Shown piece after piece: positions 1 through 15,926 of a stretch of DNA of 16,259 nt. This stretch comes from an uncultured Verrucomicrobiota bacterium (GTDB lineage Bacteria; Verrucomicrobiota; Kiritimatiellia; JAAZAB01). A program made the position numbers and the translations under genes. The notes beneath the pieces were generated by a model. The model worked only from the letters and a program-made list of their open reading frames with translations, had not been told where the DNA came from and did not search any database. The first letter of the stretch is position 1; the number at the start of each line of letters is the position of its first letter. The DNA lies in NCBI GenBank assembly GCA_964515705.1, contig CAZEVX010000046.1:592-16850 (forward strand). Direction: 5' to 3'.

Positions 1-2342
1 TCGGCCTCGGCGGCCAGGGCGGCCAGGCGCTGCTCCTGCTCGCTCAAGGCTTGGGCGCTCTGCTGGAGACTGTCAGCGGCCTGCCGCCAGGCGGCGTGCC
101 AGGAAGCCGATTCGTGGACGGTCAGGCTGCTCGCCGCCGGGAGCGCGGCGAGCACGGCCCGACAGTGTTGCAAGCGGCGCTGCTCCAGGTGTTGCGCGGC
201 GGTCTCCGCCTGTTCGGACAGCGCGCGCACCTGCGTCTGTTCGGCCACCGCCCGGGCGGCGACGTCCGTGAACGAAGCGGCATCGTCCGGCATCGGATAC
301 ATTGCCGCCGCCTCTTTGAAGAGCGCGCAGGCTCGTTCCCAGGCGCCGGCCTGCACGGCGGTCTCCGCCTGTCCGCGGAGATCGGCGGCCTGCTGGCGCA
401 GGGCCGTGAGACGGTCCCGTTCGCGGTCCAGGCGGGCGCGCAGTTCCGCGGGAGACGGCAGCGGCGTGCCGCCGGGCTGCGGCGCCGCCCACTCCGGCGC
501 CCGGGCCTGATCCGTAAGGCCCGCCAGCATTGGTCCGGCGGCGTCCAGGTCGGATAAGGCGTGATCGAACTGGCGGTCGGCCACGCGGCTGGCGGCGCGC
601 GCCGCCAGGTCCGAGGCCTGCCGGTAGCGCAGGGCCTCGGGGATATCCCGGGCAATGATCTGCTCGACGGTGTTGGACAATTCGCTTTGCGGATGGCCAT
701 GGCGTTTCAGAAAGGCGGCCAGGGGGTCGGCGGCCGTGGCGGGCCGGTCGCGCATCCGGGCGCGGGCATCGGCCAGCGCGGCGCGGTAATCCTGTTCCTC
801 GATGCGGCCTTCGATCTCGCGCAAGGCGGTGGCGATCTCGGGGTTGTGCGGGTCGAGGTCCCGGAGTTGGCTCAGCAGCGCGCGCGCCTCCTCAAAACGG
901 TCGTCGGCGCGGGCGCTCGCCGCGTCCGCCTTGAGGGCCTCGAGTTTTCGGAGCGCCTCCTCGGCTGCCCGCCGGAATGCGGCGGCATCGTCGGCTAGTT
1001 TCCGGCCCTTGGGGCCCGGGAGCCGCAGCGCGGCCGGCCACTGGCCGGCTTCCTTCAGCACCCGGCTCCAGCGCTTGGCTTGGGCATGCTCCTGCATCCG
1101 CTGCACGATCTCGATGGCCTTGCCGAAGCCGTCCATTTCCGTGCCGCAGGCCGAGCAGAAGGGCACCTGGATGCGGAACTCGCGGTCGCACTCCGGGCAT
1201 TGCTTGAACAATCCCTGGCCGCAGCCGGCGCAAAACCGCGCGGCCTTGTCGTTCTCGAGGCCGCAGGCGGGGCAGGCGTCCTCGCCGGCGGCCAGGGCGC
1301 CGTGGGGCGCGGCGCGCCGCCCGGCGCGCCCGCCCAGCGTCTCGAGCGCCTGGATCAGTTCGTCGGCGCTGAAGAACCGTTCCTCGGGCTTGGCCTTGAC
1401 GCACTTGAAAATGATGTCCCGCAGACGGGGCGGCGGCGGGATTTTGTCGGGGTCCACCTGGTCGGGGATTTCCCCGGTCACCATTTCGTACAAGGTCTTG
1501 CCGAGGGCGTAGATGTCCGCGGTATGGGTCACGTTCTTGGCGTCGCGCCGCTGCTCGGGCGGCATGTAATAGGGGGTGCCCATCCCGTACCCGGAGATCG
1601 AGAGGGTCGAGTCGCGCCCGGCGCGCGCCAGCCCGAAATCCACGATCTTGGGGATGAGGTCGTCGCCATCCTTCGCCAGCAGGATATTGGCCGGCTTGAG
1701 ATCCCGGTGGATCAGCCCCATGCGGTGGGCGTAGGCCACGCCCTGGGCGACGCCCTTCATCAGGCTGACGGACTCCGGCACCGGCAGCGCGCCGCCGCGC
1801 GCCTTGATCCGGTCGCGGAGCGAACCGCCCTCGACGTACTCCATGACGATATAGAATCCGTCGCTGTCGCGGTTGGTGTCGAAAATGCCGACGATATTAC
1901 GATGGTTCAGCTTGGCGATCAGGAGCGCTTCGTGCTGGAAACGGGCGACGGTCTGGTCCGCCTGTTGGGAAGCCTGCGGGTCGGGCAGCAGGCGCTTGAT
2001 CGCGACCAGCCGGTCCAGGTGCCGGTCGTGCGCCTTGTACACCACGGCAAACCCGCCGCGGCCGATTTCGGACAGAATCTCGTAGCGCGCCGAGAGCGGG
2101 GCGCCGGACGTCGCCGACGCCTGGCCGGGCAAGCCGGGAACCACGAGCGTCGGCCGCTTGCCCACCGAAACCGGTCCGATCCCGGAGCCGGCCGGCTGTT
2201 CGGGAATGGTCCGAGCGGCTCCCACCCCGGAAGGGCTGGCTTCCGCTTCCGATGGCCGCGAGGCGCTGGACAGCGGCCGTCCGCACTCGTGGCAGAACTT
2301 GGCCTTGTCCGGAATCTCGGAGCGGCACTGGGGGCAGATCAT
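1..2342 (-). CDS. Hanks-type Ser/Thr protein kinase with an N-terminal zinc ribbon, an internal double zinc ribbon and a C-terminal alpha-helical (TPR/coiled-coil-like) region. The 3' end runs off the window start.
   Basis: Reverse-strand translation from the ATG at 2342 (revcomp of CAT 2340-2342). The N-terminus is MICPQCRSEIPDKAKFCHECGRPL (zinc ribbon). The kinase domain carries a Gly loop (GRGGFAVVY), catalytic Lys (VAIKRL), catalytic loop (HRDLKPANILL), DFGLA, and GTPYYMPPEQ. Further downstream is CPACG..FCAGCGQ..CPECD..FCSACG (double zinc ribbon), followed by a long Ala/Arg/Glu/Leu-rich helical region with no stop to position 1. The ORF is absent from the supplied track because it has no in-window stop. 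Confidence 0.85.
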   Translation of the reverse strand, partial: MICPQCRSEIPDKAKFCHECGRPLSSASRPSEAEASPSGVGAARTIPEQPAGSGIGPVSVGKRPTLVVPGLPGQASATSGAPLSARYEILSEIGRGGFAVVYKAHDRHLDRLVAIKRLLPDPQASQQADQTVARFQHEALLIAKLNHRNIVGIFDTNRDSDGFYIVMEYVEGGSLRDRIKARGGALPVPESVSLMKGVAQGVAYAHRMGLIHRDLKPANILLAKDGDDLIPKIVDFGLARAGRDSTLSISGYGMGTPYYMPPEQRRDAKNVTHTADIYALGKTLYEMVTGEIPDQVDPDKIPPPPRLRDIIFKCVKAKPEERFFSADELIQALETLGGRAGRRAAPHGALAAGEDACPACGLENDKAARFCAGCGQGLFKQCPECDREFRIQVPFCSACGTEMDGFGKAIEIVQRMQEHAQAKRWSRVLKEAGQWPAALRLPGPKGRKLADDAAAFRRAAEEALRKLEALKADAASARADDRFEEARALLSQLRDLDPHNPEIATALREIEGRIEEQDYRAALADARARMRDRPATAADPLAAFLKRHGHPQSELSNTVEQIIARDIPEALRYRQASDLAARAASRVADRQFDHALSDLDAAGPMLAGLTDQARAPEWAAPQPGGTPLPSPAELRARLDRERDRLTALRQQAADLRGQAETAVQAGAWERACALFKEAAAMYPMPDDAASFTDVAARAVAEQTQVRALSEQAETAAQHLEQRRLQHCRAVLAALPAASSLTVHESASWHAAWRQAADSLQQSAQALSEQEQRLAALAAEA

Positions 2343-3640: not shown

Positions 3641-4747
3641 TCACCCGAAGCGCTGTTCGCGGAAGCGCTCGTATTGCTTCATCAGGCCGGGGGTGATCGA
3701 GGCCGGGATGTTGCGCAGGGCGGCCTGCAGGTCCTGCTCGCGCACGACCGGCGCGCTGTCGTCCTTCACGCAGCGCCCGAGCGCGGCGCGCTTGGCGGCG
3801 TTGACGATCCCCACGATGTCGCTGCCGGTATAGCCCTCGAGGCGGTCGGCCCAGGCCTCGAGGCCGATCTCCGGCTCGCGCGGCGCGTCCTTCAGGCTGG
3901 AGGACAGGATGCCCAGGCGCGCGGCGCGGTCGGGCGGCGGGATGAAAATCTTCTCGTCGAAGCGCCCGGTGCGGAAGACGGCCTCGTCAATCTCCCAGGG
4001 CTTGTTGGTGGCGCCGAGCAGCAGCAGCACGTTGGCGCTATCCTCGAACCCGCCGACTTCCGCCAGGAACTGCACCACGATGCGGTTGTCCACCACGGAG
4101 TTGCCGCCGCGGCGCGGCAGCAGGCCGTCGACGTCGTCGAAAAACAGGACCGCCAGCGGGTGTTCGCGGGCGGCTTTCACCAGCAGGCGCAGTTTCTGCT
4201 CCGATTCCCCGTGCCACTTCGAGCGGATTTGCGCGCCGGACGCATAGTAGAAGGGCGCGTCCAGTTCGTGCGCGATGGCCTTGCCGAGGGTGGTCTTGCC
4301 GTTGCCGGGCGGCCCGTAGAGCAGCACGCCGCCGCCGGCCTTGAGGCCCAGCGCCTTGGCCTTCTCGAGCGCTTGCAGCGGATAAATCACCATCTCGCGG
4401 ATGGTCCGCTTGGCGTCTTCCATCCCGGCGATCATCGCGAACGTCTCGGCCGCCGGGGCGTCGCCGGGGGCGGCGGCCGGCTCGCGGGCGGTGCCGGGCG
4501 GCGCTCCGGCGGGGGCGGTGCGCGGCGGCGCGGCCTTCAGGCGCGCGGCGATCTCGAGCCAGCCGTCGGCCTCGTCGGCATAGCGCTGGGCGATGGCGCC
4601 GTCGGTCTGGCTGGCCAGGGCCAGGGCGAACTCGGCGGCCTTGGCGGCGTGGAAGACCGCCTCGCGCGGGCGTCCGCCGCGGATCAGGGTCTCGCAGCGC
4701 GCCTCATGCTCGCGCTTCTTGTCGAGGAGGAAGCTCATGAGATGCAT
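3641..4747 (-). CDS. Vps4/CdvC-like AAA+ ATPase (meiotic clade) with an N-terminal MIT-like domain.
   Basis: 368 aa. The N-terminal ~75 aa (REAVFHAAKAAEFALALASQT...AIAQRYADEADGWLEIAARLK) resembles the MIT three-helix bundle of Vps4. A Pro/Ala-rich linker follows. The AAA cassette has Walker A (GPPGNGKT) and Walker B (VLFFDDVD). The meiotic-clade signatures SKWHGESE and GATNKPWEIDEAVFRTGRFDEKIFIPPPD are present (cf. Vps4 [35 protein letters not shown]). The C-terminus (MKQYERFREQRFG) resembles the Vps4 C-terminal helix (LLKQEQFTRDFG). Confidence 0.85.
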   Translation of the reverse strand: MHLMSFLLDKKREHEARCETLIRGGRPREAVFHAAKAAEFALALASQTDGAIAQRYADEADGWLEIAARLKAAPPRTAPAGAPPGTAREPAAAPGDAPAAETFAMIAGMEDAKRTIREMVIYPLQALEKAKALGLKAGGGVLLYGPPGNGKTTLGKAIAHELDAPFYYASGAQIRSKWHGESEQKLRLLVKAAREHPLAVLFFDDVDGLLPRRGGNSVVDNRIVVQFLAEVGGFEDSANVLLLLGATNKPWEIDEAVFRTGRFDEKIFIPPPDRAARLGILSSSLKDAPREPEIGLEAWADRLEGYTGSDIVGIVNAAKRAALGRCVKDDSAPVVREQDLQAALRNIPASITPGLMKQYERFREQRFG

Positions 4748-4750
4748 TCA

Positions 4751-4802
4751 GCGGAGGAGAGGAAAGGCGCTCGCGGAGGCGCGGAGGCGCGGAGGCGCGG
4801 AG
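4751..4802 (+). repeat. Copy of the short GC-rich interspersed repeat (GCGCTCGCGGAGGCGCGGAG with a tandem GCGGAGGC x3).
   Basis: It matches copies at 7444-7477, 14317-14372 and 15971-16146. It sits just upstream of the Vps4-like start codon. Confidence 0.7.
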
Positions 4803-4806
4803 CCGA

Positions 4807-5052
4807 TTATAAATGATTGACAACACGTTTGATGCCATCCTTCACGACGGGCACATTGAAGTTGATCAGAAGCCCCGGGTTTTTATTGGCAAGTTTCAGA
4901 TACGTATGCAATTGCAAAACAAACACGGGCGCCAGTTCCGCAACGGGTCCCAGTTCGCGATGTACGTCGATGGCGCAGCCGATAATCCGGCTGGCTATCA
5001 TATTCTCGGGTTTTCCCGTATGAGTTAGTGATTTCACCCCTCTCCGCGTCAC
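4807..5052 (-). pseudogene. Internally deleted GxxExxY / PD-(D/E)XK_3 family protein remnant.
   Basis: The translation ENMIASRIIGCAIDVHRELGP is joined directly to VAELAPVFVLQLHTYLKLANKNPGLLINFNVPVVKDGIKRVVNHL. These match the N-terminal (..VHRELGPGLLESVYE..) and C-terminal (..VHKAQLLTYLKLSGLKLGLLINFNxxLLKDGIKRIVN) ends of GxxExxY proteins. About 60 central residues are missing, including the GxxExxY and catalytic motifs. The track's M is a GTG at 5052 inside the flanking repeat. The real start is probably near 5001. Confidence 0.65.
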
Positions 5053-5088
5053 CGCGAGTTCATTCCTCTTCTCCGCATCTCCGCGAGA
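5037..5088 (-). repeat. Inverted copy of the interspersed repeat (revcomp GATCTCGCGGAGATGCGGAGAAGAGGAATGAACTCGCGGTGACGCGGAGAGGGG).
   Basis: The reverse complement shares GCGGAGAAGAGGAATGAACTCGCGG with the copy at 16106-16130. It abuts the stop codon of the ESCRT-III gene (5089-5091). Confidence 0.7.
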
Positions 5089-5718
5089 TCACTTCCCATC
5101 CAGCAACTTCTTCACCCGCTCCTGGCCGTCCGCCAGCCGGCTGTCGAGCGCGCCGCCGGCCCGGGCGGCGGCGGCGCCGCCGACGTCGGCGGCGACTTCC
5201 TGCTCGAGTTGCCGGCTGAGTTCTTCCATGCTCGGGATATGATCCTCGAGGGCGGCGGCGGCGCCTTCGGTCTCCTTGCCGTAGAGTTTTTCCCAGAAGC
5301 GGTCGGCGTCTACCTGCTCGCCGAGCAGGTCCTGGGCCTCCTCGAAGACGTCGGCCACCTGTTCGGGGTCGATCTTGACGACCTGGTTGATGCGCTGGAG
5401 CGCGTCGGAAAACTGCTGGTCGGACTCCGCCGCCTGGAGCTTGGTGTAATACTGCTCGAAGACCCAGCGTTTCTGTTCGAGCTTGGTCATCAGCACCTGC
5501 GCGGCGCGGTAACTGATCAGGGCGCGCTGGGCGGCGGCTTTCTGGCCGGCCGTCATCGCCGCGCGCGCCTGGTCCCATTGCTTCTTGGAGTCGCGGTCCA
5601 TCTGCTTGACGCGGTCCTTGACGGTCTCGATGGCGTTCTCGGCCTGGCGGAAGGCGTGCCGCCGTTCCTTGCGCGCGTCGCGCGCGCGCTCTTTCTTGGA
5701 CTTGAAGAGGTGGGTCAT
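5089..5718 (-). CDS. ESCRT-III / Snf7 (CHMP)-family protein.
   Basis: 209 aa. It has a basic N-terminus (MTHLFKSKKERARDARKERR, cf. Snf7/CHMP MGLFGKxxK...) and a helical hairpin rich in K/Q/A. The acidic alpha4-5 signature VVKIDPEQVADVFEEAQDLLGEQVD resembles Snf7 DIDKVDETMDEIREQVELGDEISDA. The acidic C-terminal tail ends ..LDSRLADGQERVKKLLDGK. A strong SD (AAAGGAG) lies 6 nt upstream of the ATG. Confidence 0.8.
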   Translation of the reverse strand: MTHLFKSKKERARDARKERRHAFRQAENAIETVKDRVKQMDRDSKKQWDQARAAMTAGQKAAAQRALISYRAAQVLMTKLEQKRWVFEQYYTKLQAAESDQQFSDALQRINQVVKIDPEQVADVFEEAQDLLGEQVDADRFWEKLYGKETEGAAAALEDHIPSMEELSRQLEQEVAADVGGAAAARAGGALDSRLADGQERVKKLLDGK

Positions 5719-5759
5719 GGGTCGGCTCCTTTCGGGCGGGCCGCGGCGGACGCCGCGCG

Positions 5760-6701
5760 CTATCCGTCGGTCTTGTCCGGGGATTCGGGCCGCGGCGCCG
5801 GGTCGCTTGCCGGCGGCGTCTCCTTGGCCGCGGGCGTGTCGAACCCGGCCAACTCCTGTTCGAGGGCGCTGGCGGCGGCGGGCGTCTCGAAGTCCGCCAG
5901 TTGCTCCCGGAACGCCTCGCGGTCGGACTCGCGCTCGCGCCGGCGCCCGGCGCGCTCCAGGTCGCGCGCGGCGTCGGCGCGGTCTTCGGCCTCCTGGACC
6001 TTGTCCTCGACGTCGTCAATCAAGTCATCGATCGCCGCGTCCTTGACGCCGGCCATGCCGTAGGCCATGACCTCGAGCATGCGCCCCTTGACCTGGGCGA
6101 GGGTGCGCTCGTTTTCGAGCAGGACCGTCAGTTCGCGTTCCGTGGCCTTGTAGGCGGCCAGCAGCGTCTGGAGTTCGGCCTCCAGCAGGCGCTTGCGGGC
6201 GGGCGGCGCGGTCTCGTAGACCTTCTTCTTGGCGGCGATCTCCTGGAAGCGGGTGTCGAGGGTCGTTGACAAGGCGGTGCGCCGCGCCGCGTTGGCGGCG
6301 GCGGCGCTCTCGATCGTCTGCAGCATGGCCTGCGGGGATTTGTCCTGGTGCAGTTTGCGGAACAGGGTCAGCGCGCCGGCGCCCAGTTTCCGGGTCAGGC
6401 GCAGGGTTTCCTGCATGGCGGCCTTGAGCTTGGCGGGGTCCGGCTTGGGCGCCGCCGGCCCGGCGGGCGGAAGCGCGTCTGTCGGAGCGTTCACGGGGTC
6501 CTCCTTGTCCGGCGGCGACGCCGGCGCCGCCGCCGGCGCCGGGCGGGCGTCCGGTTCCCGGTATCCGTGGGCCGGGCAGAGCCGGTTGCCGCGATGCCAA
6601 TGTAGCGCGCAGAACGGCTGGGCGCAATCCGGATGTTGGCAGCGGCCGGCGACGGCATACCGGCTGGGCAAAGGCTTGCCGCAGACACCGCAGGTGTCCA
6701 T
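5760..6701 (-). CDS. ESCRT-III / Snf7-family protein fused to an N-terminal Cys/His zinc finger (AN1/MYND/HIT-like spacing).
   Basis: 313 aa. The N-terminal C4-x2-C7-x13-C21-x4-C26-x4-C31-x2-H34-x-H36-x5-C42-x2-H45 is a Pro/Ala-rich linker. A Snf7-like core follows (..KKKVYETAPPARKRLLEAELQTLLAAYKATERELTVLLENERTLAQVKGRMLEVMAYGMAGVKDAAIDDLIDDVEDKVQEAEDRADA). Compare CHMP MDIDKIDDLMQDIADQQELAEEIS. The C-terminal tail has two LA[DG]F[ED]TPAA motifs and a Pro-rich end. The start is 6 nt after the OMP stop. Confidence 0.75.
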   Translation of the reverse strand: MDTCGVCGKPLPSRYAVAGRCQHPDCAQPFCALHWHRGNRLCPAHGYREPDARPAPAAAPASPPDKEDPVNAPTDALPPAGPAAPKPDPAKLKAAMQETLRLTRKLGAGALTLFRKLHQDKSPQAMLQTIESAAAANAARRTALSTTLDTRFQEIAAKKKVYETAPPARKRLLEAELQTLLAAYKATERELTVLLENERTLAQVKGRMLEVMAYGMAGVKDAAIDDLIDDVEDKVQEAEDRADAARDLERAGRRRERESDREAFREQLADFETPAAASALEQELAGFDTPAAKETPPASDPAPRPESPDKTDG

Positions 6702-6707
6702 GGCGCG

Positions 6708-7394
6708 CTAGAACTCCTGGCGCACGCCGAGTTCGGCGAACGGCAGTTGCAGGCGTTCGGCGAAGTCGCTGTTCTTCAAACGCTGGTCGCGGTAGCCGGC
6801 GGCCAGGTAGAGGTTGGCGTTCTTGGCGATGGCGTCGAGCGTGACGGCGTAGGCCAGCCCGCCCTCGTAGGACCACAGCCAGGCCCAGCCGTCCTTGTCG
6901 GGCACGTCGGTGTTCATGCGCATCGGCAGCACGCGGGTGTTGGCGAACAGGAAGAACCCGCTGCGGCCGAGCGGCACGTTGACGTTGACGCCCAGCCCGG
7001 CGCCGAGCCCGGTGGTGGCGAGGCTCTTGCCCCAGGCCGGGTCGTTCTTGAGGTCGTAGTCGTACCACATCCCGCGGACATCGGCGAAGATCCCGAACAT
7101 CGAGGCGATCTCGTACATCACGATGGCGTCGGCGTCCACGCGGTCCATGTCGCCCAGCGAGCCGTAGAGGCCCTCGACGCCGATCGCCCAGCGTTCGCTG
7201 TTGCCGGGCCGGAACAGCAGGCTCGGCCCGAACATGGCGCCGCTCTCGGAATAATCGCCGTCGCCGTAGAGCGCGGTGTCCTTCCAGTGCGCGCCGCCGA
7301 GGCGCAGTCCGTAGGAGGCCGTTTCGGAATAGGCGCCCTGCGCCAGCAGCGCCAGGGCAAGTCCCGCGGTCAGCCATCGAAGTCTCGGGTTCAT
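6708..7394 (-). CDS. Outer-membrane beta-barrel protein (OMP_b-brl-like).
   Basis: The start is taken at the internal ATG at 7394 (MNPRLRWLTAGLALALLAQGAYS signal peptide, with GAAAGGA 3 nt upstream). The track ORF extends to 7487. It shows an alternating hydrophobic/aromatic beta-strand pattern (WAIGVEGLYGS.., YEIASMFGIFADVRGMWYDYD, LGAGLGVNVNVPL, GFFLFANTRVL, WAWLWSYEGGLAYAVTL, NLYLAAGYR) and a C-terminal ..RQEF (terminal Phe). Confidence 0.75.
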   Translation of the reverse strand: MNPRLRWLTAGLALALLAQGAYSETASYGLRLGGAHWKDTALYGDGDYSESGAMFGPSLLFRPGNSERWAIGVEGLYGSLGDMDRVDADAIVMYEIASMFGIFADVRGMWYDYDLKNDPAWGKSLATTGLGAGLGVNVNVPLGRSGFFLFANTRVLPMRMNTDVPDKDGWAWLWSYEGGLAYAVTLDAIAKNANLYLAAGYRDQRLKNSDFAERLQLPFAELGVRQEF

Positions 7395-7443
7395 GGGAGT
7401 CCTTTCAGTAGGTTGTTGCGTGGCGGGGCGCGAAGCGACGATG

Positions 7444-7477
7444 GCTCGCGGAGACGCGGAGAATGCGGAGAGGAATC
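7444..7477 (+). repeat. Copy of the interspersed repeat (GCTCGCGGAGACGCGGAGAATGCGGAGAGGAATCC).
   Basis: The core CTCGCGGAGACGCGGAG is identical to the copy at 14343-14359. It is intergenic, between genes 7600-8298 and 6708-7394. Confidence 0.7.
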
Positions 7478-7599
7478 CTGGGCGCAAAGCGCCGTGCCGG
7501 AAAAAATCTCGCGTAGGCGCGGAGGACGCTGAACGATAGCCATACGTGCTCCTGCATGTTCCGCTACCGCCAACCTGCGGTCTGCCGCCGTCCGGCCGC

Positions 7600-8298
7600 C
7601 TAGCGCGGGCGGGTGCAGCGGCGCACCAGGCCGCGCAGCAGCAGCAGGCTGACCACCAGGGCGAAGAGCGCCAGGAGGACCAGCGCGATTTCGACCTTGT
7701 AATAGATCACCAGGTCCCGCAGCGGGGGATACGATTCGCCTTCGGCATTCGCGCCGCCGATGCGCTCGCGGGTGTCCACGCGCGCCAGGGAGAGCGGAAT
7801 GCTGACCCAGGCCCTCAGCCAGTCCTCGTCCACGTGGCGCACCCGGCCGACCAGCAGGGCGTCGGCGCCCTTGGCGCTCTCGGGGATGACGTAGGTTCCG
7901 CGCACGGCCTTCCACTTGATGGCGGCCTTGTCCATGATGTCCCCGAAGCCAGAGTTCGGGTCCGTCCGCGCCCACTCGTCCTCGATCTCTTTCCAGTCCG
8001 CGCCCCGCAGGATCACCACGTGGAAGCGCTTTTCCGCCGAGAGCCGGGCCGCCAGCAGTTCCGTGAAGTTGCGCGGGTCGTTGGCCAGCGGCAGGATGCC
8101 GATGTTGGCGACGCCCTCGAGGTGCGGCGCGTTCAGCGCCTCGCGAATCCATTGCTCGATGGCCTGCCCCGCCGCCCGGTCAATGGTCCGCTCGCGGATC
8201 ACGCCGGTTGGCGCCTGGAAGGCCGCCGGCGCGGTTCCGGCCAGCAGCATCCAGCCCGCCAGCATGGTTCCCAACATCCCGGTTGTCTGTCTGCGCAT
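7600..8298 (-). CDS. Hypothetical secreted/periplasmic protein with a C-terminal transmembrane anchor.
   Basis: 232 aa. It has an N-terminal signal peptide (MLGTMLAGWMLLAGTAPAAFQ), a GILPLANDP..ELLAARL segment reminiscent of CsgG/LpoB/TolB-N-type folds (weak), and a C-terminal hydrophobic helix (VEIALVLLALFALVVSLLLL) followed by a basic tail. Confidence 0.55.
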   Translation of the reverse strand: MRRQTTGMLGTMLAGWMLLAGTAPAAFQAPTGVIRERTIDRAAGQAIEQWIREALNAPHLEGVANIGILPLANDPRNFTELLAARLSAEKRFHVVILRGADWKEIEDEWARTDPNSGFGDIMDKAAIKWKAVRGTYVIPESAKGADALLVGRVRHVDEDWLRAWVSIPLSLARVDTRERIGGANAEGESYPPLRDLVIYYKVEIALVLLALFALVVSLLLLRGLVRRCTRPR

Positions 8299-8325
8299 GG
8301 GAGCTCTCCTTTCCGTTCCTGGGGA

Positions 8326-9243
8326 TCACTTGTAGTGCGTCAGAATCCGCTGCAGGGCGTCCATCGCGCCCGGTTCGTAGGTCGAAAGCCGCAGCCGGAT
8401 GCCCGGCAGGTCCGCCAGCAGTTGGCCGATGTCCGACTCGTGTTTCAGCCCGTAGATGATCTCGTAGGACGCCGTTTCGCTCTCGCGGTCCCACTGCAGC
8501 AGGTCCACGTAATTGATGTAGGCCCGGCGTTCCAGTTCGTTCTGGATCGCCACGGCGGCGTCCATCGTCGGGACGCTGTTGACGATCAGGCCCGCCCAGA
8601 GCAACTGGTCGGTCTTGGCGAACAGGTCGTCGAGCAGCCCCGCGCTGACCTTGGCGCCGGCGGCGCGCAGGGCCAGCAGCCCGGCGCGCGCGCTGTCCTG
8701 CTCGCGGGGGCCGTCGGCCTCGAGGCGGGCCGTCGCCAGCAGCGTGCCGTCCCGCCCGCGCACCGCCTGGGCGTCGGCCGTGGCGCGGTAGCGGGCGAAC
8801 CGGCCGGTGGTGTTGACGAAGGCGCTGCGGGCCTCGACCCGCACCACGAGGTGCGCCTTGACGGCCCGGCTGAGCGCCGCCAGGTCGGTGGCGGCGGGCA
8901 CGGCGTCGCTGAACAGCCGGAAATCGCGCCGCACCAGCTCGCGCTCCAGGAGCGGCTTGATTTCCGAGGCCGCGGCCGTCGCGCCGTCCGGGCCGGCGAC
9001 CGTTTCCTGCCCGATGACCACCGTGCGCAGTTTGCCGAACTTGACCAGTTGCCCGCTGCGCGCTTCCAGCGCCCGGAGCGTGTTGGTCGGCGCGGATGGC
9101 GGGCCGGGGGGTGGCGGGAGCGGCACGGTGACCCGCGGCTCGGGCGGCGGGGGCGGCGGGATCGTGGAACAGCCGGCGATCAGCAATACGGCGGCGGCCT
9201 GGCCGACGGCCGCCAGGACGCGCAGGCTTGAGCGACGGGTCAT
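8326..9243 (-). CDS. Hypothetical lipoprotein with a Pro-rich linker.
   Basis: The start is taken at the internal ATG at 9243 (MTRRSSLRVLAAVGQAAAVLLIAGC|S lipobox, with AGGAGA 6 nt upstream). The track ORF extends to 9408 through a Pro/Arg-rich N-terminus that is probably not translated. The mature N-terminus has PPPPPPEP..PLPPPPGPP. Confidence 0.65.
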   Translation of the reverse strand: MTRRSSLRVLAAVGQAAAVLLIAGCSTIPPPPPPEPRVTVPLPPPPGPPSAPTNTLRALEARSGQLVKFGKLRTVVIGQETVAGPDGATAAASEIKPLLERELVRRDFRLFSDAVPAATDLAALSRAVKAHLVVRVEARSAFVNTTGRFARYRATADAQAVRGRDGTLLATARLEADGPREQDSARAGLLALRAAGAKVSAGLLDDLFAKTDQLLWAGLIVNSVPTMDAAVAIQNELERRAYINYVDLLQWDRESETASYEIIYGLKHESDIGQLLADLPGIRLRLSTYEPGAMDALQRILTHYK

Positions 9244-9364: not shown

Positions 9365-11014
9365 TCAGACATCCGGGTGGCGGAACGGTTCGACGCGCAC
9401 CTCGCCATGGGGCGCGCGCAGGGTTTGGCCGGGCGTCAGCCAGTCGCATCGGCCGCCGAGATGCAGCAGGAAGGCGTCCTGCTGCCGGCAGACGCAGGCC
9501 GACCCCAGGCGCGCGTCCAGCAGGCCGAGGGCGGCGTGTTTCCAGAGCGCCACGATCGCCTCGTGCGGCCGGCCGCGCTGGCGCAGGATCAGGCAGGCCG
9601 GACTGTCGGGCGCCGCGCGCCCGCGGCAGGCGGGCTGGCACGGGTCCGCCTGGCCGCACGCCTGCAGGTCGAGGTCGAACGCCACGCAGGCCGAGTCGTC
9701 CGGGTCCGCGCTGCCGAGCGTCAGCAGATGGCGCCGGCCAGCGACGATCGGCGCGCCGTCCGCGTCGCCGACCCGGCGCCCGTCCAGGAAGGTCCCGTGG
9801 GTGCTGGGTTTCGCCTGCCGGGCCGGGGCCGGCAGGCGCCGATCGAGGAGCAGGCAGCGATTCCCGTCCAGCCGCAGGCAGCAATGGAACTGGCTGATCC
9901 AGAGCACGTCCTCCTCGCGGCGGCTCAGGGGGCGGGCCAGGATGTCGGAGTCCTTGTGGCGGCCCAGTTGCAGGAGCGGCGCGGCCAGCAGGCGCGCGGT
10001 CAGCGTTCCGCACCGCAGCGTCAGGCCGCGCGCCTGCGCCGCCGGGGGCGGGCGCTGGACGGGGTGCGGCAGGAACCCGCCGCCCTCGCGCGGCGGCCTG
10101 TAATGGTGGCATTTCTTCAGCGGCAGGGTTTTCCAGCGCGGCGGGATGTCGAACTCCGCCAACTCGCGCACCGGATCGCTGGCGCGCGACTTGAGGGCCT
10201 CGAGCCCGTTGATGGCCTGGTGCACCTGGGCGTCGCCGGCATGGCCCTGCTTGATGTCATTCTTGAGCTCGATGTTCAGCGTGTGGATCACGTGCCCGAT
10301 CGTTTCCTGGGCCTTGAAGACATGATGCTTGACCATCGCCCGGAACCAGTGGTCGCCGCCGTCCCGCGTGAAGCCGACGAGCACGTCGTACGAGATTTTC
10401 CCGCCCAGCCCCGACGGGGGGGCATAGTTGAAATAGATCGGGATGGGTTGGCCGCGGGAAATTTCCAGTTCGGGCTCGTCACTGTTCAGCAGCGCCTGGT
10501 CCAGACGGATTTCGACCCGCAGGTTGGAAAGCCCTTCGCGCAACGGCCGCAGGCGGAACTCGAACGGGAACATCATGTTTTGCACAAACACCCGGCTGCA
10601 GTTGAACTGGATGTCCCAGTCGTCACACTGGCTGCGCTCCATGCCATCGGTCCACACGGCGCTGTCGGCGTCCGGCTCGCGGTCGAGCGCCGGCCGGTCG
10701 GCGCTCGCCGCGCCGCGCTCCGCCAGCGCCTCGGCCCGCGCGGCGGCCGCTTCCAAGATTCCCGCCCGCCGGCCGGCGGGCGCGCCGCCCGCGCCGGCCT
10801 CCGCCGCGGGCGGCTCCGGGGTCGGGTCCGCGCCCGCCGCCGCCGCGATGCCGCTGGCCGGCGCCGGGTCGGCGGCCGCGGCGCGCGTCGGGGCGCTGTC
10901 GCGGGAGTCGGCGCCGGGCGCCGCCGCCAAATCCTGGCCGCAGATCGGGCAGAAGGCGGCGGCCTCTTCCGGCTCGAGCGGTTGGCGGCAGTGCGGGCAG
11001 GCGCGGGCGGTCAT
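9365..11014 (-). CDS. Zinc-ribbon + FHA-domain protein.
   Basis: 549 aa. The N-terminal CPHCRQPL..FCPICGQDL is a zinc ribbon, followed by an Ala/Pro-rich low-complexity region and a ~230-aa central region of unknown family. The C-terminal FHA domain is ..LQLGRHKDSDILARPLSRREEDVLWISQFHCCLRLDGNRCLLLD..STHGTFLDGRRV..IVAGRRHLLTLG (GR..DI, S..H, S.HGT.LDG and GxxxLxLG motifs). The start is 4 nt after the stop of the upstream SPFH gene. Confidence 0.75.
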   Translation of the reverse strand: MTARACPHCRQPLEPEEAAAFCPICGQDLAAAPGADSRDSAPTRAAAADPAPASGIAAAAGADPTPEPPAAEAGAGGAPAGRRAGILEAAAARAEALAERGAASADRPALDREPDADSAVWTDGMERSQCDDWDIQFNCSRVFVQNMMFPFEFRLRPLREGLSNLRVEIRLDQALLNSDEPELEISRGQPIPIYFNYAPPSGLGGKISYDVLVGFTRDGGDHWFRAMVKHHVFKAQETIGHVIHTLNIELKNDIKQGHAGDAQVHQAINGLEALKSRASDPVRELAEFDIPPRWKTLPLKKCHHYRPPREGGGFLPHPVQRPPPAAQARGLTLRCGTLTARLLAAPLLQLGRHKDSDILARPLSRREEDVLWISQFHCCLRLDGNRCLLLDRRLPAPARQAKPSTHGTFLDGRRVGDADGAPIVAGRRHLLTLGSADPDDSACVAFDLDLQACGQADPCQPACRGRAAPDSPACLILRQRGRPHEAIVALWKHAALGLLDARLGSACVCRQQDAFLLHLGGRCDWLTPGQTLRAPHGEVRVEPFRHPDV

Positions 11015-11018
11015 GGCC

Positions 11019-12680
11019 TCATTTCACCACGTGGGTCGTCGTGCCGGGATGCCTGGCCGCCTCGGCGGTCGTCTCGAGCGCCGACTTCAAGATGCGCTCG
11101 AGGCGCTCGGCGGATTCGTCCAGCAGGTTCTTGCGCTCGGCCCAGTCCTTGTCGCGGTCCTCGCGCTTGGCGCGCTCCATCTCCGCCAGCACCCGCACCA
11201 CGTCGGGGTTGCGCCCGGCCTGCAGCGCCAGGATCACGTCGGCCGATTTCCCCTGCGCCTGCAACTGCTCGTTCAGTTTCAGCAGCGCCTCGCGCCGCGC
11301 CGGGTCGTCGGTCATCGCCACCAGCGTTTGCAGGCTCAGCTTGTCCTGGACGGCCGCCCGCTCGGCGTAATCCTGGCGCTCGAAAGCCTTTTTCTTCGCG
11401 CGCACGTCGATCCATTTCAAGGCCTCGTCGACCTCGCGCGCGGTGGTCATCTTCGCCAACTCGTCCTGCAGCCGGGCGTCCTTCGTCTGCCGGTCGCGGG
11501 TGTAGTCGTCCCACTGGATCTTGACCTTGATCTCGTGGGCGGCCTTCTCGATCTCGCAGGCCATGCGGTAGGCGGCCTCTTTCTGGTCGAGTTCGTGGCG
11601 CTGCACCATTTTCAGCAGCGCCAGTTCGCGGTCGCGCTTCTCGGCCGAAATCGCGCGCTCCTGCGCCAACTGCTTGACGTAGTCCTCGAGGTCCTGCTCG
11701 CTCTTGAACAGGTGCATCTTCTCGGACGCCACCAGCTCCCGCAGGCGCTGGCCGAACTCGATCTCGCGCCGGCGCAACTCGAGCGCCCCGGCCTGCGCGC
11801 GCAACGCGTCAAATTCCTTGCCCGAAAACTCGGCCGCCGCCACGCGCACCAGCTCGAGGCCGTAGCGCTCGAGCGCCGTTTTCAGCGTGGTCTCGAGCGC
11901 GTCCTCGACCTGCAGCCGGCGCTGCGGGTCCTTGACCAGGTCGTCGGCCGTCGAGGTCGCGCAGAGGGTCGTCACGGCATAGCGCAGTTCCGCCCGCAAA
12001 ATCTCGGCGATTTCGTCCGCCATCAGCCAGTCGCGGCTCTTGAACAGGTTGGCCACGAAGGCCGGCGCGCCCTTCTCGGAGAAATGAAAGACGGCCTCGA
12101 TTTGCAGGTCCAGCGGCAGCTCCTCGTGCGAGCGCAGGCCCTCGAACCGCAGCGGCAGCGTCACGTCGCCGTTGTCCACCAGGATCGCCGTGCGCGGCGG
12201 CGGGTCGCCCCACCAGTTGATCTTGCGCGCCAGGCTCTCGAGGGTGTGCCGCCCGGGCCCGAGCACGTCCTTGTACGCCCCGCCGTCCAGCAGGATCGCC
12301 GCCGTGCCGGTTTGGATCTCAAGTCCGTTCTTCACCAGCGCCAGGATGTCGCCCACCTCGAGGCGCCGCGCGAACTGCTCGAACCCCTTCTGCCATTGTC
12401 CACCGGCCACCTCGTTGCGGCTCTCGGGATGCAGCGCCTGCTTGCAGTTCCAGCAGAACTCCGATTCGTTGCCGACTTTCTTCCCGCAGCCGGGGCATTG
12501 CCACCAGCCGCCCGGCGCCGGCGCCCCGCACTTGGCGCAGAACAGGGCCGCCTTCTTGACCGCATGCCCGCAGCGCGGCCAGCCGGGATCCTGCAGGGCG
12601 TCCTGCAGGGCTTTGCCGGCCAGCGCCTTGCCGGTGGTCTTGTCCACCAGCGCCCGGCAGGTATCCGAAAAGAGTCCCAT
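11019..12680 (-). CDS. Double zinc-ribbon + SPFH (band-7/flotillin-like) domain protein with a long C-terminal coiled coil.
   Basis: 553 aa. The N-terminus carries two zinc ribbons: PRCGHAVKKAALFCAKCGAP, then WQCPGCGKKVGNESEFCWNCKQAL. An SPFH-like core follows (GTAAILLDGGAYKDVLGPGRHTLE..TAILVDNGDVTLPLRFEGLRSHEELPLDLQIEAVFHF..). The C-terminal ~250 aa is Glu/Ala/Lys/Arg-rich, flotillin-style coiled coil. AGGAGA lies 5 nt upstream of the ATG. Confidence 0.7.
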   Translation of the reverse strand: MGLFSDTCRALVDKTTGKALAGKALQDALQDPGWPRCGHAVKKAALFCAKCGAPAPGGWWQCPGCGKKVGNESEFCWNCKQALHPESRNEVAGGQWQKGFEQFARRLEVGDILALVKNGLEIQTGTAAILLDGGAYKDVLGPGRHTLESLARKINWWGDPPPRTAILVDNGDVTLPLRFEGLRSHEELPLDLQIEAVFHFSEKGAPAFVANLFKSRDWLMADEIAEILRAELRYAVTTLCATSTADDLVKDPQRRLQVEDALETTLKTALERYGLELVRVAAAEFSGKEFDALRAQAGALELRRREIEFGQRLRELVASEKMHLFKSEQDLEDYVKQLAQERAISAEKRDRELALLKMVQRHELDQKEAAYRMACEIEKAAHEIKVKIQWDDYTRDRQTKDARLQDELAKMTTAREVDEALKWIDVRAKKKAFERQDYAERAAVQDKLSLQTLVAMTDDPARREALLKLNEQLQAQGKSADVILALQAGRNPDVVRVLAEMERAKREDRDKDWAERKNLLDESAERLERILKSALETTAEAARHPGTTTHVVK

Positions 12681-12911: not shown

Positions 12912-13259
12912 CTACCCGCTTTTCCGCCCGCCGGGCTCCCCGCCGTGCTCCGAACAGACCCGTACCCGCTTGCGCTCCCAGCAGTCCAGGCAGATCGGCG
13001 CCCCGCATTCCTTGCACGACTGGTTCAGCGACAACTTGCTCTGGTAGGTCTTCGCGCAGGCCGAGCATACCCCGCCGCCGCGGTCAATCTTACTCGTCTC
13101 CAGATAGGCATCAAGGTCTTTCCGCGATACCCGGTAAACTTTTCCGACCCGCGAGGCCGGCAACTCGCCCGCCCGGACGAGCTTGTAAATCAACTGGTAA
13201 TGCACGCCCAGCAGCGCGGCGACGTCGTCCAACGAAAGAAACTCTTTGTCCGGGCTCAT
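12912..13259 (-). CDS. Excisionase/MerR-type helix-turn-helix (HTH_17-like) DNA-binding protein with a C-terminal zinc ribbon.
   Basis: 115 aa. LSLDDVAALLGVHYQLIYKLVRAGELPASRVGKVYRVSRKDLDAYL matches the excisionase-family HTH pattern (cf. LLTVKEAAELLGVSRSTIYRLIRRGELPAVKIG..W.I.REDLEEYL). The C-terminal is CSACAK..x11..CKECGAPICLDCW..VCSEHG. GAAAGGGG lies upstream of the ATG. Confidence 0.7.
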   Translation of the reverse strand: MSPDKEFLSLDDVAALLGVHYQLIYKLVRAGELPASRVGKVYRVSRKDLDAYLETSKIDRGGGVCSACAKTYQSKLSLNQSCKECGAPICLDCWERKRVRVCSEHGGEPGGRKSG

Positions 13260-13449: not shown

Positions 13450-13854
13450 ATGAGCGCATCCCGCCCGGTGGACGTCCTCAAGACGGCGCTCAGCACGCTG
13501 GTGCTGGTCTCGGGCGCCATTGGCAGTGTCGTCAACCTGCTCCGGGGCAACAGCATCCCGTTCGCCATTTCGCTGACGGGGTTTTTGCTAATCGTCCTGA
13601 TTGTCCTTTCCGAGGTGCGGGCGGCGTTGCGTGAATCGCGCGCCGCGGCCGCGCAGTCCCGCCGCGCGCCCGCGGACACGGCGGCCTTGTCGGGCGCGGC
13701 GTGCCCGGACTGGCTGGACCTGGCCGCGGCCTCGGCCCGCCACCCGGAAGCCCCGGAGGCCGCCGCGGATGGGCGGGTGTACCTGGCGGACTCCGGCGCG
13801 CCGGTGATCCGCCTCGTGGCGCTGGAACCGGCGGAGGGCCGCCGCCATGGATGA
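13450..13854 (+). CDS. Small membrane protein (two predicted TM helices).
   Basis: The start is taken at the internal ATG at 13450 (MSASRPVDVLKTALSTLVLVSGAIGSVVNLL...IPFAISLTGFLLIVLIVLSEV). The track ORF starts at 13324 inside the AT-rich promoter region. Its stop overlaps the next start (ATGGATGA). Confidence 0.5.
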   Translation: MSASRPVDVLKTALSTLVLVSGAIGSVVNLLRGNSIPFAISLTGFLLIVLIVLSEVRAALRESRAAAAQSRRAPADTAALSGAACPDWLDLAAASARHPEAPEAAADGRVYLADSGAPVIRLVALEPAEGRRHG

Positions 13855-14317
13855 ACGCACGCAGGCGGCGCTCGGCAAGTTCGAGGCCGCCCTGTCGGCC
13901 GAGGAGCGCCAGGCGGTGGTTCGCCACCTGCTCTCGGAGGCGCTGGTCGAGATTCCCTGCTGCCAGTGCGCCCGCGGGCGCTTTGTGCTGCCGCCCGGCC
14001 GGACGGCGGCCTTCGAGTGCCCGGCCTGCGGCGCGCGCACCTATGCCCGGCAGGACGGGGCCGCGCTGGCCATGGTGTCCGAGGCGCGCCTGCGGCGCAT
14101 CCTGCGCTTCGCCGCCGCGCGCCCCTGGTTCTGTCCCGAGCACGCCGGCGTCCGCGTCGCGGTCACCGGCGTCGCGCCCGACCCGGCCAATCCCTTTGCG
14201 ATCCGCATCCAGTTCAACTGCCGCCGCGCGCGCGGCTGGGGCCGCGCGCGCGTCCATGCCGGGGTCCGCGAGGAGAACGCGCTGTCGCTCGAGGCCGCCA
14301 TGCCGGCCGCGCCTTGA
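13847..14317 (+). CDS. Hypothetical protein with a zinc-ribbon motif.
   Basis: 156 aa. It has CCQCARGRFVLPPGRTAAFECPACGARTY (a C4 ribbon) plus a ..FCPEH.. segment. The 8-nt start/stop overlap with the upstream gene suggests translational coupling. Confidence 0.5.
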   Translation: MDERTQAALGKFEAALSAEERQAVVRHLLSEALVEIPCCQCARGRFVLPPGRTAAFECPACGARTYARQDGAALAMVSEARLRRILRFAAARPWFCPEHAGVRVAVTGVAPDPANPFAIRIQFNCRRARGWGRARVHAGVREENALSLEAAMPAAP

Positions 14318-14405: not shown

Positions 14406-15926
14406 ATGCCGGCCCGCGTGGCAGGCGCCTTCCTGATGCATAGCAACCACGGGAATGGCTTTCCCATGCAACACTCCATCAATACCGAGAACACCATCGG
14501 CAACCAGCCGGATGGCATGCCGGAAAGCTATATGCTCGCTCCGGGCCAAACGCTGGGCCATTACCGTGTCGTCCGGCCTCTGGGCAGAGGCGGGATGGGA
14601 GAGGTCTACGAGGTCAACCATCAGGTCTTTGGCAGCCGGATGGCGTTGAAAACGATTCTGCGGGAGTTTGCGGCCTCCGAGCGCTTTCAGAAACGCTTTC
14701 TGGACGAGGCGCGCCTGATGCACCGGTTGCAGAATCGCTATATCGTGCATTGTTCCGATGCCGGGGAGCATGACGGGATCTGGTACTTGGTGATGGATTA
14801 TGTGGAGGGACCTGCCGGCGAGCCCGTGAACTTGATGACGCTGCTGCAGCAGCGGCGCGAAAAGGCGCTGCTGTTCGAGGAGGAAGAAGGGGTGCTGGTT
14901 GGCATGCAACTCTGCGAGGCCTTGGCCTATGCCCACTCGTATCGGGACGAGCAGATCCAATCGGGGATCATTCATCGCGATCTCAAACCGGCCAACGTGC
15001 TGCTCAACCGGGATACGCAGTTGCTGGTCACGGACTTCGGTCTGGCGCGGCTGCTGGGGCCTGGGTTCGAACAGAGCGTGATCTCGAGGTCCATGGCCGC
15101 GGCGGTGTCCATGGGCGCCCAGGCCACGCGGGGTTCCCGTTCCGGCACGGCGGGGTCAGACCAGGTCGGCACGTTCGATTACATGAGCCCGGAGCAGCGC
15201 GAAGGGCGGGAAGCGGACGCGCGCAGCGACGTCTATTCCCTGGGAGCCATGCTGTATGAATTGTTGACGGGGCGCAAGGTGGCGGGAGTGCCGCTGAAAC
15301 CGAGCCGGGCGCGGAAGGGGTTGGATCCGATCTGGGACATCATCATCTACGAGCGTTGCTTGTGTGCCGATCCTGACGGGCGCTACGCCAGCGCCGCGGA
15401 GCTGAAAGCGGATATCTTGAAGGAAGTGCCGTGTGCGGCCGGCGAATGGGCCCCGGCCGGCCTGGGCCCAACCCCTGGTTCGGAGGCAGCGAAGCCGGAA
15501 GCGATTGGCCAACTCGCCCACGATCGCGGGCGGCGGGCAGTCGACATCCAGCCAAGATTGACGCCGGCTTCGCCCGCCGAGAGTCCCGTGCCGCCGACCG
15601 GTGTTGCCGAGCTGGGGTATTGGTATCGGGATGCGTGGAAACACGGCAAAACATTTTCCGGGCGATCCCGGCGCCGGGCCTTTTGGATGTTTACTTTGGT
15701 CGATGTCATTATTTCCTTCGGCGTGGGATTTGCCACGGCAGGGGTTGCCGAAATTCCATATATGATTGTCATGTTTCTCCCCAGGTGGGCGGTTGCGGTG
15801 CGCCGGTTGCATGACACGGGACGTAGCGGCTGGTGGAGTCTGCTCCCGATCCTCAATCTCGTCTACTTGTGCGAGGACAGCCAGCCGGGCGTCAACGCGT
15901 ATGGGCCGAATCCGAAAGGACAATAA
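14406..15926 (+). CDS. Hanks-type Ser/Thr protein kinase fused to a C-terminal DUF805 membrane domain.
   Basis: The kinase has a Gly loop (LGRGGMGEVYEV), catalytic Lys (MALKTIL), HRDLKPANVLL and DFGLARL. It carries a ~50-aa Ser/Thr/Gly-rich activation-loop insertion before GTFDYMSPEQ. The C-terminal YWYRDAWKHGKTFSGRSRRRAFWMFTLVDVIISF..IPYMIVMFLPRWAVAVRRLHDTGRSGWWSLLPILNLVYL..GVNAYGPNP matches DUF805 (E. coli YhaH-like: FSGRARRKEYWMF..LPWWAVQFRRLHDTDRSAWW..NRFGPDP). The start is uncertain among the in-frame ATGs at 14406, 14436 and 14466. The upstream part of the track ORF (13701-14405) is a GC-frame artefact overlapping gene 13847-14317. Confidence 0.8.
   Translation: MPARVAGAFLMHSNHGNGFPMQHSINTENTIGNQPDGMPESYMLAPGQTLGHYRVVRPLGRGGMGEVYEVNHQVFGSRMALKTILREFAASERFQKRFLDEARLMHRLQNRYIVHCSDAGEHDGIWYLVMDYVEGPAGEPVNLMTLLQQRREKALLFEEEEGVLVGMQLCEALAYAHSYRDEQIQSGIIHRDLKPANVLLNRDTQLLVTDFGLARLLGPGFEQSVISRSMAAAVSMGAQATRGSRSGTAGSDQVGTFDYMSPEQREGREADARSDVYSLGAMLYELLTGRKVAGVPLKPSRARKGLDPIWDIIIYERCLCADPDGRYASAAELKADILKEVPCAAGEWAPAGLGPTPGSEAAKPEAIGQLAHDRGRRAVDIQPRLTPASPAESPVPPTGVAELGYWYRDAWKHGKTFSGRSRRRAFWMFTLVDVIISFGVGFATAGVAEIPYMIVMFLPRWAVAVRRLHDTGRSGWWSLLPILNLVYLCEDSQPGVNAYGPNPKGQ

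Follow-up and report, generated by a model that had tools for sequence, protein, structure and literature searches.

A likely ESCRT-III/Vps4-like membrane-remodelling gene module in uncultured bacteria of the PVC group

Eukaryotes and archaea pair a Snf7-type ESCRT-III polymer with a Vps4-type ATPase, and the locus described here raises the question of whether bacteria do so as well. Current reviews hold that this pairing does not occur in bacteria. In bacteria, PspA is known to occur with two-AAA ATPases, and VPS4-like ATPases to occur in the absence of Snf7, their reported operons carrying a TPR-6TM gene in place of snf7 (Ravi et al., 2024). An earlier note on the DNA stretch analysed here, 16,259 nucleotides from an uncultured Verrucomicrobiota bacterium (the window), proposed such a module and stated that the characterised bacterial ESCRT-III members are not partnered with a Vps4-type ATPase; the latter statement needs qualifying in view of both these bacterial systems. 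Our literature search found no paper describing the pairing of Snf7 with an MIT-AAA ATPase in bacteria. Contrary to the reviews, some uncultured bacteria of the PVC group (Kiritimatiellia, Lentisphaeria and relatives) have a Snf7-type ESCRT-III gene beside an ATPase built like Vps4. The central features of the window are as follows.

3641..4738, minus strand: predicted MIT-AAA ATPase, 365 aa from Met4 (Pfam AAA 2e-34, AAA_lid_3, family alignment)
4529..4738, minus strand: MIT-like three-helix domain of the ATPase, residues 1-70 (AlphaFold2 and Foldseek)
4807..5052, minus strand: PDDEXK_3 (GxxExxY-type) gene remnant separating snf7 from the ATPase gene (Pfam PDDEXK_3 1.2e-10)
5089..5718, minus strand: Snf7-family (ESCRT-III) protein, 209 aa (Pfam Snf7 across the family, profile alignments)
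5092..5151, minus strand: C-terminal tail of the Snf7 protein (family consensus ELDERIKSGQERVKKLLDGK)
5760..6701, minus strand: 313-aa zinc-finger and coiled-coil protein (ORF, fold)

The three ORFs for the ATPase, the 209-aa and the 313-aa proteins were all confirmed on the minus strand. Judged by profile comparisons, the 209-aa protein is a member of the Snf7 family and not of PspA, as the earlier note had it. All 23 tested members of its family matched Pfam Snf7 (best 7e-8) and none of the 23 matched Pfam PspA; the window's own protein scored below the threshold for Snf7 (E 0.003, 17.7 bits, cutoff 27.3). The family profile is colinear with residues 18-176 of yeast Snf7 (E 6e-4; PDB Snf7 8wb6) and matched the Heimdall ESCRT-IIIB at 0.044. 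We found 438 homologues, some of which NCBI names 'Snf7 family protein'. The protein opens with a basic N-terminus (MxxLFKSKKER), followed by a helical core and an acidic helix; a Gly/Ala linker connects these to a conserved C-terminal helix. Downstream of the linker, which is variable, conservation is strong: an Arg is invariant in 118/118 members and is followed by V/I-K-x-L/M-L. The core of the MIT-interacting motif MIM1 is R-L-x-x-L-[KR]. The tail, a candidate MIT-interacting motif, resembles this core but fits the consensus only in part.

The ATPase was initially read as an ORF at 3641-4747. We placed its start at 4738, since Met4 is where both the homologues and the deposited protein start and is probably the true first residue. 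The architecture is that of a single-ring, Vps4/CdvC-like ATPase: a variable linker joins the MIT-like domain to one classical AAA domain, and the C-terminal helix ends in RFG. The NCBIfam CdvC model aligns to it over positions 101-367 of 370. The AlphaFold2 model of the N-domain (pLDDT 92.7) has three helices (3-20, 24-43 and 47-69), and the top PDB match in Foldseek was the MIT domain of VPS4B (2cpt, TM 0.81). The MIT domain of Sulfolobus CdvC (2w2u) matched with TM 0.79 and 23% identity, and further matches included 4u7y, 2v6y, 1yxr, 2v6x and NRBF2. The probabilities of these MIT matches ranged from 0.97 to 1.0, but their E-values of 0.24-2 were non-significant. MIT sequence profiles, including that of Pfam, did not match this region. 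The proposed MIT-like N-terminal domain is thus upheld by fold, on the model and the ranking of fold matches, but not by the Pfam profile.

The AAA core mixes Vps4-like and Cdc48-D2-like traits. Both RSKWHGESE and GATNKPWEIDEA are found in the ATPase, and GPPGNGKT, SKWHGESE and FRTGRFD are conserved in its family (120 members). All these members retain an intact Walker A, pore loop 1 and arginine fingers, and the catalytic Glu of Walker B is replaced by Asp in the window's ATPase, as in 29 of the 120 relatives. Of the signatures once considered Vps4-specific, NxPW and the C-terminal Y-E-x-F-x-x-x-R-F-G helix are indeed common to Vps4 and katanin, whereas SKWxGESE also occurs in VAT D2. Pfam Vps4_C did not match the ATPase. 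SKWxGESE, the RxGRFD arginine-finger segment and pore loop 2 are Cdc48/VAT D2-like, the classical RxGRFD being kept in a core without the beta-domain. The NCBIfam models CDC48, CdvC and PAN scored 195, 167 and 159 with the window's ATPase, 237, 233 and 214 with yeast Vps4, and 395, 203 and 317 with VAT D2. CdvC therefore ranks second for the window's ATPase, above PAN, a pattern that looks Vps4-like and unlike a true Cdc48 D2, although the CdvC scores of the ATPase (167-204 bits) are far under the equivalog cutoff of 650. By family profile, the core lies somewhat closer to VAT D2 than to Vps4 (221 versus 191 bits), its identity is 40.7% with Cdc48/VAT D2 and 33.6% with Vps4, and the C-terminal 102 aa match a Cdc48-type D2 best. 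In a neighbour-joining tree, AAA domains taken from multi-AAA proteins of bacteria are the closest kin, with 99% bootstrap, and the link to the meiotic clade has only 32% support. With a core that mixes both kinds of traits, this ATPase may or may not belong to the meiotic clade, in which it had been placed.

The pairing of the two genes recurs in related genomes. Among the 29 species-representative (GTDB) loci, all from PVC MAGs, the ATPase gene is co-directional with snf7 in 23, as it is in two further loci that we looked up. The hosts are uncultured MAGs labelled Kiritimatiellia, Lentisphaeria, Victivallales or 'Verrucomicrobia'. The gap between the two genes is 3-20 nt in L006, L009, L019, L025, L026 and L028, and in L031 they overlap by 4 nt. 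Elsewhere, unrelated insertions separate the genes and the linkage persists; within 10 kb, the ATPase gene is absent from three loci with long flanks (L003, L008 and L010). The pairing goes far beyond what chance would give. The association of a Snf7-type gene with an MIT-AAA ATPase gene in a Gram-negative-type bacterium, the core of the earlier proposal, holds and is conserved in about 29 PVC genomes at species level. In the window, the intergenic slot, which carries other insertions in other loci, holds the PDDEXK_3 remnant. The match spans only profile positions 78-117 of 117 and the translation has an internal deletion; the remnant is degenerate and no part of the system. In some genomes, a diversity-generating retroelement and a PDDEXK remnant are inserted within the cluster.

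The window contains further genes around the pair.

3..2342, minus strand: Ser/Thr protein kinase with zinc ribbons, running past the window end (Pkinase 6.6e-50, DZR 5.7e-14, Zn_Ribbon_1)
6708..9243, minus strand: variable envelope slot of three genes, not part of the conserved core
6708-7394, minus strand: outer-membrane beta-barrel-like protein (weak OMP_b-brl match, E 0.004)
7600-8298, minus strand: 232-aa protein with hydrophobic segments at the N- and C-termini
8326-9243, minus strand: lipoprotein
9365..11014, minus strand: zinc-ribbon and FHA-domain protein, 549 aa (Pfam FHA 1.6e-5)
11019..12680, minus strand: SPFH/Band-7 protein, 553 aa (Pfam Band_7 9.1e-11, DZR 7.3e-7)
12912..13259, minus strand: HTH_17 DNA-binding protein, directly upstream of the SPFH gene (Pfam HTH_17 1.1e-15)
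13450-13854, plus strand: small membrane protein, in a divergent pair (13450..14317) with the next gene
13847-14317, plus strand: 156-aa zinc-ribbon protein, second gene of that pair
14466..15926, plus strand: Ser/Thr protein kinase fused to a DUF805 membrane domain (Pkinase 7.4e-39, DUF805 1.4e-18)

Snf7, the ATPase, the HTH_17 protein, the zinc-ribbon SPFH and FHA proteins and the zinc-finger coiled-coil protein form a conserved co-directional cluster with Ser/Thr kinases near it. The SPFH protein carries a double zinc ribbon at the N-terminus and a long coiled coil at the C-terminus, and in about 19 loci its homologues are encoded upstream of snf7. They are followed in 16 loci by homologues of the FHA protein (22-32% identity), which presumably reads phospho-threonine. 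The HTH_17 gene is found at this position in 14 other loci and is probably the first gene and the regulator of the cluster; the only winged-helix signal was a sub-threshold Rv2175c_wHTH match on its product. In L001, L002 and L006, homologues of the divergent pair follow the ATPase gene; in L004 they lie between it and snf7. Two Ser/Thr kinases flank the cluster in the window, and kinases are also near the system in L001, L002 and L004. With lipobox-type lipoproteins readable straight from the window sequences, the reported surroundings of lipoproteins, SPFH protein and kinase/FHA genes hold. The tie to the outer-membrane barrel, described as hard-wired, is confirmed as a 6-nt gap (313-aa gene start 6701, barrel gene end 6708), but homologues of the envelope slot including the barrel occur only in L003 and L009, and different secreted proteins or lipoproteins fill the slot in 12-13 other loci. 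Where the surroundings of the cluster were listed, FtsH and DHDPS are among the housekeeping genes in them.

The 313-aa protein had been taken for a second Snf7/CHMP-family member, which we could not sustain. It matched neither the Snf7 nor the PspA profile, hhalign against the Snf7 family gave 2% probability and its fold matches were generic, so an ESCRT-III identity is not demonstrable. Instead, an N-terminal Cys/His zinc finger (residues 1-50) and a low-complexity linker are followed by a long helical hairpin (123-164 and 167-214), three further helices and a conserved SF..LA.F motif at the C-terminus. It may serve as adaptor or nucleator, or be a second subunit of the filament.

We consider it likely that these genes constitute an ESCRT-III/Vps4-like membrane-remodelling module of bacteria, conserved in a clade within the PVC group. 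Most likely, Snf7 forms a polymer on the inner membrane that the MIT-AAA unfoldase turns over, with kinases and the FHA protein in control. The inferred steps are these. By way of its basic N-terminus, Snf7 would polymerise on the cytoplasmic side of the inner membrane, and its conserved C-terminal helix, on the flexible Gly/Ala linker, would recruit the MIT domain. The ATPase hexamer would then thread Snf7 via the invariant K-W-H-G pore loop, extracting subunits and turning over the filament, which would drive or reset membrane deformation in repair, budding away from the cytoplasm, or constriction. The SPFH protein could mark or cage the membrane site, the FHA protein could tie assembly to threonine phosphorylation by the flanking kinases, the 313-aa protein could serve as adaptor or nucleator, and the variable periplasmic proteins could link the outer envelope to the event.

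The mixed character of the ATPase allows another origin, namely an independent unfoldase derived from Cdc48 D2 with a convergent N-domain, whose Vps4 likeness would be analogy rather than homology and which may or may not act on Snf7. The core and C-terminal region scoring best against Cdc48/VAT D2, the tree placement, the retained RxGRFD and the missing MIT signal in profile searches fit such an origin. However, NxPW, the terminal FG helix and the CdvC-versus-PAN pattern are Vps4-like, CdvC has the same overall length and layout, and it is specifically the Vps4 and CdvC MIT domains that top the fold matches; we regard this origin as possible but doubtful. Even if it were true, the conserved Snf7 linkage would still argue for the same mechanism.

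A different physiological output, with the same polymer-plus-unfoldase logic, would be a Psp-like envelope-stress or repair system rather than a scission machine. Snf7 would coat and stabilise the damaged inner membrane like PspA/Vipp1, the ATPase would be a chaperone or regulator keeping Snf7 soluble or recycling it, and the SPFH protein would act in recruitment, as for YdjI-PspA in Bacillus. Functional links between bacterial SPFH proteins and PspA are known (cited in PMC10936438), bacterial PspA and divergent Snf7 genes adjoin AAA ATPases (Ravi et al.), and the cluster includes envelope proteins and an HTH regulator. We nevertheless find this output unlikely: the 209-aa protein is Snf7-type and not PspA-type, PspB, PspC and PspF were not found among the Pfam matches of the scanned cluster genes, and kinase/FHA control with an MIT-AAA ATPase are hallmarks of archaeal ESCRT systems. 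SPFH and kinase/FHA genes are also present in some defence islands, and together with the inserted retroelement and PDDEXK remnant and a generic match of the ATPase to the defence ATPase IetA, they could suggest a mobile or anti-phage island in which the pair has no role in cellular membrane remodelling. This is very improbable, as PADLOC yielded only a generic AAA match, the IetA score (92 bits) is well under the CDC48 and CdvC scores, IMG/VR viral contigs contain no relative, and the gene order is stable between genomes amid housekeeping genes.

Read as an ESCRT-III/Vps4-like module, the PVC system can be compared with several known ones. Yeast Snf7 and Asgard ESCRT-IIIB are the best sequence matches of the 209-aa family, and the ATPase shares the MIT fold, NxPW, the W pore loop and the C-terminal FG helix with eukaryotic Vps4. 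Unlike Vps4, it has no beta-domain or Vps4_C match, RxGRFD in place of RRRF and a Cdc48-like pore loop 2; the components of ESCRT-0, -I and -II are absent. The bacterial PspA/Vipp1 and VPS4-like systems (Ravi et al., 2024) also have conserved neighbourhoods suggesting ATP-dependent membrane remodelling, whereas the PVC system combines a Snf7-type polymer subunit with a single-AAA, MIT-bearing ATPase. In pairwise and profile comparisons, the AAA core and lid are most similar to Cdc48/VAT/p97 (D2) and the mycobacterial Msm0858, but these proteins contain two AAA domains and a double-psi-barrel N-domain instead of one AAA and an MIT-like N-domain.

In the archaeal Cdv system (CdvB with CdvC/Vps4) of Sulfolobales and other TACK archaea, a Snf7-family gene likewise adjoins that of an ATPase of about 370 aa. 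CdvC has the same layout, its NCBIfam model aligning to the protein end, and its Sulfolobus MIT domain superposes with the modelled PVC N-domain. The PVC host is, however, a diderm bacterium without CdvA or a winged-helix fusion, the ATPase scores below the CdvC equivalog cutoff, the motif in the Snf7 tail differs from CdvB's proline-rich MIM2, and the accessory genes differ. Archaeal ESCRT loci contain FHA proteins, Ser/Thr kinases and SPFH proteins with zinc ribbon and coiled coil (PMC10936438). By domain type, the accessory repertoire of the euryarchaeal ESCRT systems (Main, Halo_FHA and Meth_adaptin; Makarova et al., 2024) matches that of the PVC cluster: FHA, Ser/Thr kinases, SPFH with zinc ribbon/coiled coil and several zinc-ribbon/coiled-coil proteins are common to both. 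The adaptin-appendage domain was not detected in the PVC cluster, whose locus differs from the euryarchaeal ones also in carrying bacterial lipoproteins and an outer-membrane protein.

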